From a virus, in UHGV virus genome UHGV-0287771: a DNA stretch of 25,755 bases; one strand, written 5' to 3'. Under the pieces are notes generated by a model, which saw only the letters and a program-made list of their open reading frames with translations, did not search any database and was not told where the DNA came from. Made by a program: the position numbers and the translations under genes. Of the stretch, positions 21,490-25,755 are shown piece by piece. How positions within the stretch are numbered: position 1 is the stretch's first letter; the number at the start of each line of letters is the position of its first letter.

Positions 21490-23763
21490 ATGACTGATAC
21501 CAATTACCTGGTCTCTATGCCGTCCACTCCTTTTTCGGCGCCACGAGCATTTAAGTCAGTGGCGAACGGGAAAATCTACATCGGAAACCCTGACACTGAT
21601 CCGGTAAATCCTGCCAACCAAATCCCGGTATATGTCGTTAATGAGGATGGCTCCGAGGTTCAGGTTTCACAGCCAATCATCATTAACGCCGGCGGCTTTC
21701 CGGTCTATAACGGCCAGATTATGAAGTTCATCACGAAACAGAACTTCAGTATGGCGGTCTATGACGCATATGGAGCGCAGCAATTTTATTGGCCCGATTT
21801 ATCTCGCATAGATCCAGATACAGCATACAACACCATCATAAATAATATTGGCGCACAAGATGGACTGAAGTATGTTGGTCAGTGCTCAGATTTAACAGCT
21901 CTCAGGGCTATTGAGCCAACCGTTTCTAACCAGCGAATTAGTGTCGCTGCATACGCTCCCGGGTGGGCCTCGCTGACAGGTGCGCCTGTTGGCGGTGGTG
22001 AGTTTTATTATGACCCCAATGATACGACATCTTCTGATGACGATATTTTTATTTTTGTAACGGCTGGCGGTAAGCGCTGGAAGCGTGCTTGCTCCGGCAA
22101 AAAAATCTGCCTGGAATGGAAAGGGGTAAGGCCTGGTGATGATGCAGCTCCGGCATTAAATGCTATCGGCACTTACCTGAATAACAAGGCCATCGCAAAA
22201 GGTACTGTTTCCGGGCTTCCTCGAGTGCATGTCGGCGCAGGCGTTTACCCCCTGTCAGATACTGTCAACCTCACATACGCATTTCGCATAAAGGCGGTTG
22301 GTAATGTAGAATTTACGACAACGGACTGGGATAGCACGGTTGCAAAAGATATTTTCACTATCGCTAACCCTGCAAATATGCCTGCAGTTCCTGACAAGGG
22401 GTATGCAAGCGGTGACCCGTGGCTTAATGGTTCTGATGGCACCATTTTAATCACTGGTCCCGTCTATGATGCTGCGGTCACAAACAATGTGGTTGGCGTT
22501 GGTGTGGGAAACCTCGTCACCGGGCGGACGCCCGTTCGTGGTAATGTGATGCATGGCGTTTCAATCCGTTACTGTGGCAGTGCGATTTACCTGCGCATGC
22601 GTCGTCTGTACCTGACGTCATTTAGTCATGTTCACTGCGAGCTTAATAACACACATATTACCTGTCCTAACCAGTCAGGCACCGAAGACTCCGGGGAGCG
22701 TATTGCATTTCATGAGTGCGTTTTTGGCGGGTGCAGGAATCAGCACGTTTATGTATATATGACACCGGCTCTGCATTTTGAATCATGTTCATTCGACTTT
22801 GCTCAGGGGAGCGGTATTTATCTGGATGGGATATCTGAGTATGGTCTTTTTTCATTCACAAACTGCCATTTTGAGAACTTCAATAACTACCTTATTAATG
22901 CCCAGACCGGTTCTCGGGTCACTCTTCTGATTACTAATTGTGATGTATTCAATAACAGCCAGACTACGCCGGTTACCGCAGCATCTGCTTCATCCCCTTC
23001 CCGTCCTATGTTTAATCTTGCCAACGGCGGGAATGTGGTTATTAACGGATTTAAACTGAACTATTCATATCGACCTCTTGGTTCATTGAATATGCTGGTT
23101 TCGCCCGAGACACAAACTGCAGATACAAGAACACGAGTATCAGTTAACGGACTGACGGCGGGTGATAAGTCAATGACACCGTGCCCCGCAGCAGCGCATA
23201 TCATGAACCGATCAAATGATTTTAGCGGGGAAACTGTGGGTTCCACAATTACCAGCAAAATCGCATACACAACAACACATGTTCAGCCAGTACAGGACAT
23301 TGCAAGTTCGTGGGGCTCAGGGATGTCCGCATCTGTTGTCGCTGACGGTAGCACAAAGGGTTTGCAGATGGTGTCAGCAGACAATACTAACTTCGGTTAC
23401 ATTCAGCCAAAAACTGCGATTCCTGTTTCGCCAGGGCGCGCCTACTCAGCATATTTCAGTATCCAGAAGTTGCTGGCGGCTGGCGGAATCAACTGGTCTG
23501 TGAGCTATCTGTGGTACGACAAAGACGGGAACCTGTTATCTAACGATAGAGCTCTGTCAGGTCGGTTTTCCAGTGTATATAACGACACGACATTGCCGGG
23601 ATATTCAACAGATGCTACAGCAAACGGTAATAGAAAGTTGAGCACAACCATGTGCGTACGCATTGCGCCCCCCGGCGCTGCTTACTGTCGCCCATACTTT
23701 AGTGTGTCGTCGTTTACTGGAACTATAAATATCGTCAATTTTTTGATGTGGGAGTATCAGTAA
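21490..23763 (+). CDS. tailspike protein (P22 gp9-type N-terminal head-binding domain with divergent receptor-binding body)
   Basis: First ~110 aa resemble recalled P22 tailspike N-terminus ([35 protein letters not shown]...); remainder is beta-rich (Asn/Gly/Thr/Ser-rich) without recognised identity. Confidence 0.85.
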
Positions 23764-23981
23764 TGAATATCTATCTTGAGCCAGGCACCAGCAATGTGTT
23801 TGTTCTCTCCCCGGAATCTCCGGGGGAGGCGTACGAACACATTGGCGAGGTCAGTGATGATGTATCGCTGTCCCCTGTCATTCCTGATGAAATCTATGAA
23901 GTAATAGCGGCGTATAACGAAAGCCTTTTATCTACTGGGCTTGAGCTGAACATGAGAGGGTCATATTCCTCCTCCAATTGA
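23763..23981 (+). CDS. hypothetical acidic protein, 72 aa, translationally coupled to the tailspike
   Basis: ATG 23763 overlaps the tailspike stop (TAATG); acidic composition; no family recognised. Confidence 0.45.
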   Translation: MNIYLEPGTSNVFVLSPESPGEAYEHIGEVSDDVSLSPVIPDEIYEVIAAYNESLLSTGLELNMRGSYSSSN

Positions 23982-24019
23982 TAGATATAACCTGTCTTGA
24001 TCAGTCAATTCACAACATA

Positions 24020-24039
24020 TACTGTATATAAAAACAGTA
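24020..24039 (+). promoter_or_regulatory. LexA operator (SOS box) overlapping a likely promoter
   Basis: TACTGTATATAAAAACAGTA: CTGT-N8-ACAG with AT-rich spacer, a near-perfect match to the E. coli LexA box consensus TACTG(TA)5CAGTA; 15 nt upstream of the next start codon. Confidence 0.75.
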
Positions 24040-24054
24040 TTGTCGGGTGTGGAT

Positions 24055-24294
24055 ATGATAAGACGTAACGCCATAGCGGAGGCTTTCAGAGCCTCCATTT
24101 CTATAAATCCTAAAGGTTATCAATACCTTTACACGGATTCTTTCATCTCCGAACTACAGCGGAGGGGTATCCATTTCTCAGAGAAGGAGGCTAACAACTG
24201 GATATCGAGAGAGCAGACGTACTTTGTCGACAAGACGCCGGACCATAGCGAAAACAGGTTGTGGATGCTGGCGAATATGGGGAGGGTGATCTAA
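24055..24294 (+). CDS. hypothetical protein, 79 aa, first gene of the LexA-box operon
   Basis: ORF directly downstream of the LexA box; stop overlaps the start of the next gene (TAATG); function not recognised. Confidence 0.5.
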   Translation: MIRRNAIAEAFRASISINPKGYQYLYTDSFISELQRRGIHFSEKEANNWISREQTYFVDKTPDHSENRLWMLANMGRVI

Positions 24295-24611
24295 TGGGCT
24301 TTCCTTCACCCGCGACGGATTACGTTGAGCAGCGACTGTCCGTTAACTCGATCTGCAATGTCGGCCCTAACACCCGCGTTTTCGAAAGGGATGGCGGTTA
24401 TGTTGTGCTGGATATTTCCCTGAAGCCAAAGCAGGGTAGTCAGGTTCTGATCCAGCACGGCGGCGGTACGGAGCTTGCCACGCTGAGAGGAAAGTCACTG
24501 ATAACCGAAGACGGCGAAGCGATCGAGGGAGATGCTCTCGACGATGTCACTGTCATCGGTGTCGTGACGTTTACTATCTGCGATGTTCGTTCTGATAATT
24601 CTATTATTTAA
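24294..24611 (+). CDS. UmuD'-like (S24 LexA/UmuD-family fold) protein, apparently lacking the catalytic Ser
   Basis: Starts M-GFPSPATDYVEQR, matching the UmuD/MucA motif GFPSPAADYVEQR just after the UmuD self-cleavage site; GGGGAGGG SD 7 nt upstream; no G-D-S-M serine motif seen by eye, Lys retained in RGKSL. Confidence 0.6.
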   Translation: MGFPSPATDYVEQRLSVNSICNVGPNTRVFERDGGYVVLDISLKPKQGSQVLIQHGGGTELATLRGKSLITEDGEAIEGDALDDVTVIGVVTFTICDVRSDNSII

Positions 24612-24622
24612 CTGGGGTATAT

Positions 24623-25288
24623 ATGGCGCTGAAGCTATTAGCCAATAATAACGCAAAGAGTGTTCTCGCTGCGGGTATTAGCGCGTCCGCTACCGTTATT
24701 ACCGTGGGGTCGGGTGCAGGTGCTTTATTCCCCGCGCCGGTATCGGGAGAAAGCTATTTCAAATTAACGGTAACCGACGCCGCAACGAAAACAATCAACG
24801 AAATTATGCATGTCACATCTGTATCTGGTGACGTGATGACGGTAATTCGTGGTCAGGAAGGAACCACGGCGCGCGTATGGTCAACGAATGACATTGTCGC
24901 AAATTTAATGACCGCCGGCTCATTGTTATCGTTCCTGCAGATCAGCAATAACCTGTCAGAAATTAAAGATGCCGGTGAGGATGCGGTAAATGAAGCCCGT
25001 TATAACCTCGGAATATCTGATTCCTCTGGTTTTGTCGGGCGTTCTCTTGGCGCTCCAAAAGCGTTCTATGCAAACGGCACCTATACGCGCTCTCCTCTGG
25101 CCCGTTATGCAAAAGTAACGTTGGTCGGAGGTGGCGGCGGCGGTGGCCGGGCGGGTTCTCAGGCCGGTATTGCTGGCGCAGCTCCCGGATCCGGTGGTGG
25201 TGGCGCGTATGACCTTGGGTTTACCGGTACGGCATTTACCGGTGGTGATGGTGCTACTGGCATGGCGATCGTGGAAGAATTCGCGTAA
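24623..25288 (+). CDS. Gly-rich protein, 221 aa; N-terminal part reminiscent of phage fibre N-termini; possibly a truncated gene
   Basis: ORF 11 nt after the UmuD'-like gene; C-terminal poly-Gly/Gly-X stretch (VGGGGGGGRAGSQAGIAGAAPGSGGGG...); followed by ~430 bp without a convincing ORF before the att core. Confidence 0.5.
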   Translation: MALKLLANNNAKSVLAAGISASATVITVGSGAGALFPAPVSGESYFKLTVTDAATKTINEIMHVTSVSGDVMTVIRGQEGTTARVWSTNDIVANLMTAGSLLSFLQISNNLSEIKDAGEDAVNEARYNLGISDSSGFVGRSLGAPKAFYANGTYTRSPLARYAKVTLVGGGGGGGRAGSQAGIAGAAPGSGGGGAYDLGFTGTAFTGGDGATGMAIVEEFA

Positions 25289-25717
25289 TGGCTTACACTC
25301 CTGCACGACCATCGATGTAATCAGCCCACCACTGCATCATCTACCTGCGCTTATCGAGATACTGAGCATGGTTGTAAATCCCACGCACAGATCCGCCGTT
25401 GGCATGAGCGAGTTGCACTTCGATAGTTTCGTGATGCACCAAGTGATCAAAGTCATGAAATTTAACATCCAAGCCTCCATCGATCGATACTTGCGGTAGT
25501 TGATAAGGAAAAACTATGGTACACAAAGCGTTGCACTGGATTGCAAGGCTTTGTGCTCTTCTGTGGATGTGTGGCTACATGTTTGAAGATCGTTGTGCCG
25601 CATTTGTGACATACACATGACAACATCATGCATCAACTTTCTGTTTGTGCCATCAACTATAGCTTAGTGAATGCGGTTAATGCTTGCTAAAACAGATAGT
25701 TATGATTGGTGCTACAG

Positions 25718-25755
25718 ATTCGTAATGCGAAGGTCGTAGGTTCGACTCCTATTAT
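25718..25755 (+). other. 3' portion of a tRNA-Thr(CGU)-like gene (anticodon loop, T-arm); candidate attR core, truncated by the window end
   Basis: ATTCGTAATGCGAAGGTCGTAGGTTCGACTCCTATTAT contains the anticodon-loop sequence with CGT and a canonical T-arm GGTTCGACTCC; the 5' half of a tRNA is absent upstream (sequence diverges before 25718). Confidence 0.6.

Follow-up and report, generated by a model that had tools for sequence, protein, structure and literature searches.

An internally deleted fibre-like gene beside an apparent module-exchange junction at the right end of a P22-like Escherichia coli prophage

The last gene before the attachment site of virus genome UHGV-0287771 encodes a glycine-rich protein of 221 amino acids (aa) from which 122 codons are missing, in frame, relative to its homologues. 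The gap ends precisely at a short direct repeat of the full-length gene, the same deletion is found in a second allele, and the DNA between the gene and the attachment core is made up of the end of an integrase gene and a phage attachment arm. We consider it probable that the gene is a decaying passenger copy of an accessory tail-fibre gene, lying at a module-exchange junction, and that the arrangement reflects ordinary prophage mosaicism.

Results

The fibre-like gene and its surroundings

The window, by which we mean the whole stretch of 25,755 nucleotides analysed, takes in the late region of a P22-like E. coli prophage of the CUS-3/Sf101/IME10 type and runs to its right end. Its tailspike is 757 aa long and has a P22 head-binding domain. 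An earlier note, made from the letters of the DNA, had described a glycine-rich ORF of 221 aa close to the right end. This ORF, with the N-terminal and polyglycine sequences quoted there, is present as the third gene of a small operon. The features of the region are as follows.

23997-24039, + strand: promoter-like region, with a -35 element TTGATC (23997-24002), a 17-nt spacer and a -10 element TACTGT
24020-24039, + strand: perfect LexA (SOS) box TACTGTATATAAAAACAGTA, read from the sequence, overlapping the promoter -10 element
24055-24294, + strand: first operon gene, 79 aa (PHROG 3893, E 3.1e-38)
24294-24611, + strand: second operon gene, 105 aa, UmuD'/HumD-like, S24-type (PHROG 3469 'UmuD-like', E 7.5e-47)
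24623-25288, + strand: fibre-like gene with ATG start, 221 aa, third operon gene, 122 codons missing in frame; residues 1 to about 135 are the fibre anchor domain and neck helices, and residues from about 141 to 221 are what remains of a TNF-like/glycine-rich head
25136-25147, + strand: deletion junction, the single remaining copy of the 12-nt direct repeat GGCGGCGGTGGC
25293-25427, - strand: fragment of an IntS-type (argW) tyrosine integrase gene, the last 44 of 386 codons plus stop, 134 bp
25428-25509, no strand: junction segment of 82 bp
25510-25717, no strand: P arm of a thrW-type attP, about 210 bp
25718-25755, + strand: att core, made up of the 3' part of the tRNA-Thr gene thrW, incomplete at the window end

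Database searches with the 221-aa ORF gave 249 homologues at E<=0.001, the best at E 5.5e-113, which is far above chance. The family has lengths of 320-385 aa, modally 343, with members in Klebsiella, Yersinia, Enterobacter and Rahnella, and the relatives, typically of 343 aa, carry the name 'glycine-rich domain-containing protein'. For the exact 221-aa protein the database entry reads 'hypothetical protein [Escherichia coli]'. Annotation pipelines label the product in this way and overlook where it came from. The earlier note had said that homologues of full length at about 221 aa would speak against its reading. The family as a whole is longer, yet copies of 221 aa do recur, in 25 contigs.

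An in-frame deletion between direct repeats

Alignment of the 221-aa protein with its 343-aa homologues gave 93-96% identity in two blocks, residues 1-171 and the last 50 residues; the 122 residues that separate these blocks in the homologues were absent. The corresponding gap in the DNA is 366 bp, in frame. In full-length genes GGCGGCGGTGGC occurs twice, at positions 514 and 880 of the gene, a spacing of exactly 366 nt; every other exact direct repeat in the full-length gene is shorter than this 12-mer. BLAST alignments of the two pieces of the window gene with full-length genes overlap at 25136-25150. These are the marks that a slipped-strand or unequal-recombination deletion would be expected to leave, and such an event was presumably the mechanism. 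The suggestion in the earlier note of a truncated fibre-like gene was therefore right in that part of the gene has been lost; however, the loss is an internal, in-frame gap and both ends of the 343-aa protein are kept.

The deletion is on record in 25 contigs, 12 with the window allele and 13 with a second 221-aa allele (P0122). The second allele has the same junction and a different left flank up to the base before the 12-mer. Its left flank is that of the full-length allele of phage PDP110P2, while the left flank of the window allele is that of the full-length allele of E. coli AZ147. Because the flanks of the two short alleles are each identical to those of a different full-length allele, the deletion appears to have arisen at least twice, and two independent deletions at the same repeat pair would be the simplest explanation of the two alleles. 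In a third allele (P0123, 325 aa) the codons missing in frame lie between the second-longest repeats of the gene, a pair of 11-mers at positions 510 and 567. The exact 51-nt deletion junction had no match among the GTDB representatives (one genome per species), a result that carries little weight, since the allele did turn up by protein look-up. Across loci the deletion allele is identical at the nucleotide level, with 0 mismatches, so that dN/dS is uninformative on selection.

The deletion was also considered as a point of recombination between alleles, as the window is 86% identical to one related locus (L001) upstream of the deletion junction and 99.5% identical downstream. Mismatch mapping placed the mosaic boundary, which separates a more divergent 5' part from a nearly identical 3' part, near 24950, about 190 bp before the junction, and this candidate was rejected.

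Other shortened or broken versions of the gene are on record. Frameshifted versions occur in short-read assemblies (P0008 and P0010-P0012). Two of them (P0008 and P0010) were considered as cases of decay specific to P22-like prophages, and were set aside because locus L041 is not P22-like and the assemblies are short-read. Proteins of 272-273 aa (P0014 and P0016) had looked N-terminally disrupted; translation of the AZ147 locus gave an intact 343-codon ORF, and the shorter lengths reflect the choice of start site in annotation.

The intact 343-aa protein

A family profile built from 40 members matched the N-terminus of the 'putative tail fiber protein' of PDB entry 8JOV over residues 8-125 (E 3.4e-15), and the N-terminus also found 8JOV by phmmer (E 2.4e-7). 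Together with matches to PHROG tail-fibre families, this bears out the earlier description of the N-terminus as fibre-like. The same N-terminus was found by tblastn in annotated tail fibres of Ralstonia GP4, Bcep22, Yersinia vB_YenM and Pantoea PdC23 phages. Over residues 135-356 the profile matched fibre gp24 of cyanophage Pam3 (E 2e-8), and it also matched the 'tail wing brush' protein gp33 of Bxb1 (E 0.003). A full-length homologue (P0003) scored 60.6 bits against Pfam family PF21722 (cut-off 24.3), covering model positions 7-223 of 226.

AF2 modelled the head of the 343-aa form with confidence (pLDDT about 90). In Foldseek searches the model matched Pam3 gp24 (7YPX) with E 4.7e-9. Further matches were to tail-tip proteins of Bxb1, to many viral fibre ends of the 'glycine-rich domain' kind and, weakly, to the TNF-like/glycine-rich domains of ALK/LTK (E about 0.01-0.1). 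Judged by these homologies, the intact gene is by descent an 8JOV-type fibre anchor joined to a glycine-rich head of the Pam3 gp24 type. Within the family the N-terminal 135 residues may be kept while the head is replaced by a gp53-like or Collar domain; modularity of this kind in a predicted head is typical of receptor-binding proteins.

The head of Pam3 gp24 is a ten-strand TNF-like sandwich with 12 glycine-rich motifs, in which strands run into six glycine loops, and the loop tips have been proposed as receptor contacts (PMC9608196). In Klebsiella phages, fibres of the Pam3 type bind LPS and trigger DNA ejection (PMC12671077).

What remains of the head

The 221-aa ORF matched no Pfam family at E<=0.1, and thus not PF21722. 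Its model had a pTM of 0.37, with three strands left in the head region, and matched no PDB fold at E<=0.001 (best E 0.7), so that the match to Pam3 was gone. The residual C-terminus was modelled by AF2 with pLDDT 72-90. The retained parts are homologous to members of the PF21722 family, with 93-96% identity on both sides of the gap.

The deletion would join the first glycine strand directly to the opening strand of a late loop. Of the six glycine loops it would remove about four and leave about two, and the beta-sandwich would lose about half of its strands. As the PF21722 match is lost, three strands are left and no PDB fold is matched, we infer that the receptor-binding head is very probably non-functional, although AlphaFold cannot prove misfolding. 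The deletion joins glycine strand to glycine strand, and a minimal fold is possible. From its sequence the anchor domain of the 221-aa protein appears intact.

The DNA between the gene and the att core

From 25289 to the att core at 25718 the window has about 430 bp with short or overlapping ORFs only and no credible gene, as the earlier note had stated, and the 61-aa minus-strand ORF listed there is present at 25341-25526. The short ORFs in 25289-25718 gave no Pfam match, no fibre-gene homology was seen in 25289-25717, and no known RNA was found in Rfam over 23700-25755 at E<=1.

The gene is followed on the minus strand by the end of intS. A tblastn search with an intact 386-aa IntS (from locus L005) placed an internal TAG in the fragment at 25341-25343. 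The fragment is 93% identical in DNA to the int genes of Sf6, CUS-3, IME10 and VT2phi_272, and RefSeq annotates the same fragment in AZ147 and in L001 as 'integrase, incomplete, missing N-terminus'. A complete catalytic domain and an open frame of an integrase are both absent from the window fragment. Sister prophages have a whole intS gene (386 aa) here, which ends 4 bp beyond the same ORF; tRNA-Arg (argW) and yfdC come next. Two other loci, that of PDP110P2 (L003) and L004, contain an intS remnant broken at another point, 25379. The 61-aa ORF is the intS fragment read on into flanking DNA, and its matches are to small PHROGs of unknown function only.

The 82-bp junction segment gave partial matches only, to SfII and SfIV from about 25449 and to SfX from 25480; it matched no Rfam family and contains no credible ORF. 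The P arm that follows is 95-97% identical to thrW-type phages, the match being to the sequence that immediately precedes the annotated attP core in HK446, mEpX2, mEp213, HK75, HK542, ECP1 and SfX. Within the arm there is a conserved hairpin (25522-25555), and a direct repeat beginning CATCAACT occurs at 25631 and 25651. The hairpin was considered as a counterpart of lambda sib/tI. The homologous lambda stretch is 27476-27519, which we take to lie just beyond tI/sib rather than within it, and this assignment was rejected.

The last 38 bases of the window are identical (100%) to the annotated attP core of P22, ES18 and L. The integrase belonging to this attP would be expected at the opposite prophage end, beyond the window. 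A metagenome contig (L007), 100% identical over 5,521 bp, continues with CGGCACCA and then with non-phage DNA. ARAGORN found no complete tRNA, which fits a prophage end that has only the 3' fragment of one. In E. coli AZ147 the full-length gene is present and the DNA from the junction onwards is identical to the window, with 0 mismatches over 25136-25755 (620 bp).

The seemingly non-coding DNA is thus best read as a module-exchange scar followed by a normal attachment arm. The earlier note had offered two other readings. One, that this DNA is the eroded rest of the fibre gene, was not borne out, as it consists of the intS fragment and the phage's own thrW-type attP arm. The other, a remnant of an earlier element at the same tRNA, was correct in that a gene remnant does lie downstream; the remnant is of argW-type intS and not a thrW relic. 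Because the stump is of the argW type and contiguous with the ORF, as IntS is in the sister prophages, and because the rest is an attP arm, the DNA does not appear to be the relic of an older thrW element.

The SOS-box operon

The LexA box, 35 bases upstream of the first operon gene, is the sole match to TACTGTATATAAAAACAGTA in the window, with 0 expected in shuffled sequences. The LexA-box promoter was recognised by eye and by alignment; a scan of 23400-25755 for consensus promoters and terminators found sites no more often than in shuffled sequence. CTGT-N8-ACAG is kept about 20 bp upstream of the 79-aa gene in 16 related loci, among them the ones with other head types, and the -35-like TTGATC is conserved. 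The 79-aa gene is called at the same place in related loci, and its stop codon overlaps the start of the next gene (TAATG). The 105-aa protein scored 46.6 bits against the NCBIfam HumD model, under the cut-off of 120, and its homologues are named S24/S26 family peptidase or HumD family in RefSeq. The fibre gene starts after a gap of 11 nt. On the basis of the predicted LexA site, SOS control of the operon is likely.

The operon adjoins the integrase in prophages of several tail types. No match to PADLOC defence-system models was obtained with the three operon proteins and an upstream 72-aa ORF. Two loci (L018 and L020) have a 494-aa reverse transcriptase between the LexA box and the operon; there is none in the window. 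The gene was considered as the target of a diversity-generating retroelement, and this was rejected, since L018 has no template or variable repeats and the reverse transcriptase is generic or group-II-like.

Distribution of full-length and deleted forms

The gene was found in 78 of 5,426 complete E. coli genomes, and the best 40 matches listed were all full length. The genomic context of the deletion allele was examined in 11 cases, all of them P22-like. The full-length contexts examined (about 14) were all baseplate-J/DUF2612 myovirus-type or lambdoid prophages, an association with tail type that comes from a small and phylogenetically non-independent sample. Variants with a gp53-like or Collar head occur in baseplate-J contexts too. 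In E. coli PK6 a P22-like prophage has the two upstream operon genes followed directly by intS, with no fibre gene. These distributions suggest that P22-like phages can do without the fibre gene and are losing it.

Loci with the window allele share the block 23965-25340 with at most one mismatch to the window, and with none in four of the five loci compared. The same loci differ by 15-30% in the C-terminal half of the tailspike, and are integrated at argW, att-lambda or thrW. No second protein with an 8JOV-type anchor was found in the 25.7-kb window, which covers most of the late region. Chronis and locus L018 have a second, long protein with such an anchor.

Discussion

Origin of the 221-aa form

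The history that we think probable would run as follows. The intact gene would encode an anchor and trimerisation domain, short neck helices, and a TNF-like, polyglycine-rich head of the kind with which Pam3-type fibres bind the host surface. Runs of GGN codons encode this head, and slippage or unequal recombination between the copies of GGCGGCGGTGGC would take out 366 bp in frame. The product would keep the anchor and almost certainly lose the receptor-binding head. P22-like phages adsorb by their tailspike, so that the fibre gene would be dispensable to their virions and could be lost; incorporation of even the full-length protein into virions of these prophages is putative. An argW-type integrase gene would once have followed the fibre gene, and exchange of the integration module would have left its 134-bp 3' stump before a thrW-type P arm and core.

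Against simple decay, the reading frame is intact, and the same in-frame lesion is found twice, in 25 contigs, which selection for the short form would also fit. The 221-aa protein might thus be a functional short form selected in P22-like phages, either with a two-loop head or as an anchor-only protein made in the SOS response. In its favour are a deletion that is in register with the repeated glycine strands, two independent origins, spread over 25 contigs with at least three att sites and different tailspikes, the retention of the LexA box and the tight operon structure, and the pLDDT of 72-90 for the residual C-terminus. However, the site is a mutational hot spot, and any deletion between repeats that share a codon phase must keep the frame. 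The matches to Pfam and to known folds have gone, as have about half of the sandwich strands, the P22-like prophage of PK6 has dropped the gene altogether, and there is no sequence variation from which selection could be measured. We therefore regard a selected short form as unlikely. It is likewise improbable that the cassette is an SOS-induced unit independent of tail type, with a protein that acts outside the virion or as a universal add-on fibre and with the short form selected. A free surface-binding factor or an exclusion factor would be examples of a role outside the virion.

The remaining explanations seem to us much less probable again. Loss of the C-terminus, with the 430 bp as its eroded remainder or as the relic of an earlier element at the same tRNA, would account for an ORF shorter than its relatives and for a gene fragment downstream. 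It is very unlikely, however, since the last 50 residues are present, including the conserved C-terminal ...IVEEFA, and the downstream fragment is of the argW rather than the thrW type, is located on the phage side of the core and directly adjoins the ORF, just as in the sister prophages; the rest is the conserved attP arm of living phages. The 221-aa form could be ancestral, as a head of repeated glycine loops might grow by duplication to give the 343-aa form. There is very little to commend this order of events, because the 343-aa form aligns end to end with PF21722, Pam3 gp24 and Bxb1 gp33, from unrelated phages, the family measures 320-385 aa across Klebsiella, Yersinia, Enterobacter and Rahnella, and the two 221-aa alleles nest inside different 343-aa alleles. 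Collapse of repeats in the GGN tract during assembly or sequencing comes to mind in a repetitive region for which frameshifted versions exist in short-read assemblies. Such an artefact is extremely unlikely: the 12-nt repeat is shorter than assembler k-mers, and assemblies from NCBI, ENA and Logan together show the same junction in 25 contigs and on two allelic backgrounds.

Comparison with known systems

In the full-length family the C-terminal two-thirds resemble Pam3 gp24 (7YPX/7YFW) in having a TNF-like beta-sandwich and a polyglycine-loop lattice, and motifs of the GGGGxGG type are central, as in gp24 and in its Klebsiella relative TFP_Y of SCNJ1-Y. Heads of the Pam3 type recognise the host surface, in the Klebsiella cases LPS (PMC9608196, PMC12671077). 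The differences from Pam3 lie in the N-terminus, which is an 8JOV-type domain where gp24 has an alpha-helical shaft, and in the position of the gene, which is in a LexA-box operon at the prophage end and not among baseplate genes. Because the integrase comes next, there is no adjacent chaperone gene like that of gp25. In addition, the window copy lacks 122 residues of the head.

Residues from about 7 to 120 are homologous to the 8JOV fibre, which was resolved in a virion structure (18 chains), and to the fibres of GP4, Bcep22, vB_YenM and PdC23, and in vB_YenM phages this N-terminus is on a fibre encoded directly after the baseplate genes. Unlike in these fibres, the C-terminal part is unrelated to theirs, and the window has neither a partner nor a second fibre with the same anchor. 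Pam3 gp24 has been related to S16 gp38 (PMC9608196). With the S16 gp38 adhesin and the ALK/LTK domain the family shares a lattice of glycine strands (polyglycine II), a distant structural resemblance only; no sequence-level match to gp38 or ALK/LTK was found.

LexA-controlled accessory operons are familiar from humD of P1, the dinI-antirepressor operons of Gifsy prophages and tum of phage 186. The operon in the window is like these in having an SOS box over the promoter, a small operon with a HumD-like gene and a position at the prophage periphery. It differs in its last gene, which is of the fibre-like, receptor-binding type; we found no description of such an operon (LexA box, 79-aa gene, HumD-like gene and fibre-like gene) in the literature. 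A fibre-type receptor-binding gene behind a LexA box and beside a HumD-like gene is a wider arrangement that could merit a separate look.

The attachment region resembles the exchange of integration modules among lambdoid and P22-like phages, where IntS/argW of Sf6 and CUS-3 stands against thrW in P22, SfX and HK446, with a junction at the 3' end of int. Particular to the window is that only a 134-bp intS stump, containing a stop codon, is left, and this stump would mark a swap of integration modules. Repeated GGN codons would expose polyglycine fibre heads to exact in-frame deletions that recur. Both the repeat-mediated deletion and the integrase stump are features to be expected of temperate-phage mosaicism.

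Predicted SOS operon and its variants

The fibre-like ORF (24623-25288) is the last of three genes, following the 79-aa and HumD-like genes. Just 5′ of the 79-aa gene, a perfect LexA box overlaps a promoter-like region:

23997-24039: LexA box TACTGTATATAAAAACAGTA, with promoter-like TTGATC-17-TACTGT

The box occurs only here in the window and is kept in 16 related loci. Because of this overlap, the single occurrence and the conservation, the three-gene unit looks like an SOS operon.

Two related contigs (L018, 4266-6450; L020, 84-2268) carry additional genes downstream of the LexA box and upstream of the HumD-like gene, one for a reverse transcriptase of 494 aa and one for a product of 106 aa. 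This reverse transcriptase is similar to generic or group-II-type enzymes, and a search for DGR-type repeats found none. The fibre-like gene is absent from the P22-like prophage at argW in E. coli PK6 (L043, 4734-6480), where the 79-aa and HumD-like genes are followed directly by the integrase gene intS.

The fibre gene has a further allele with an in-frame deletion (P0123, 325 aa), found in L033-L036. GGN repeats of 11 nt, at positions 510 and 567 of the gene, bound the deletion, which takes out the tip of glycine loop 1. Frameshifted variants (P0008, P0010-P0012) were seen at the same GGN tract, the majority of them in short-read assemblies. In L014 and L015 (5674-6705) the RefSeq product is 272 aa and starts at an internal Met; an open 343-codon ORF with the usual family start is present, and the shorter annotation looks like a wrong start-site call.

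The attP P arm and the thrW site

Two features were identified in the P arm:

25522-25555: hairpin with a 14-bp stem, from conservation and RNA folding
25631-25669: direct repeat CATCAACTTTCTGTTTGTG / CATCAACTATAGCTTAGTG, copies 20 bp apart

The hairpin is common to HK446 and lambda (27476-27519), with approximately 82-90% identity. As minus-strand RNA it has a folding energy of -24 kcal/mol (z = -3.7), with UUUUU after it. The hairpin may act in the termination or processing of int transcripts. Its lambda counterpart presumably adjoins tI/sib and is distinct from it. The repeats are candidate arm-type integrase sites.

Downstream, the thrW site appears to be adjoined by variable, defence-type islands. 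Past the window end, 3′ of the attR core, the metagenome contig L007 (5530-11054) carries non-phage genes, including one for a PDDEXK_GAPS4-family protein, and the equivalent place in E. coli AZ147 holds an ABC-three-component system.

Tailspike and a second anchor protein

The window is nearly identical to sister prophages L004-L009 in the head-binding half of the tailspike (21490-22400) and in the operon (23965-25340), and diverges from them by 15-30% in the intervening tailspike C-terminal half and next 72-aa ORF (22400-23964). The tailspike has undergone a swap of its receptor-binding region.

Klebsiella phage Chronis (L010, 1466-4015) and L018 (977-4231) encode a second, long protein (849-1084 aa) with the same N-terminal fibre anchor, 59% identical over 101 residues. 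In these two, one anchor is common to two receptor-binding proteins, an arrangement from which the window differs.
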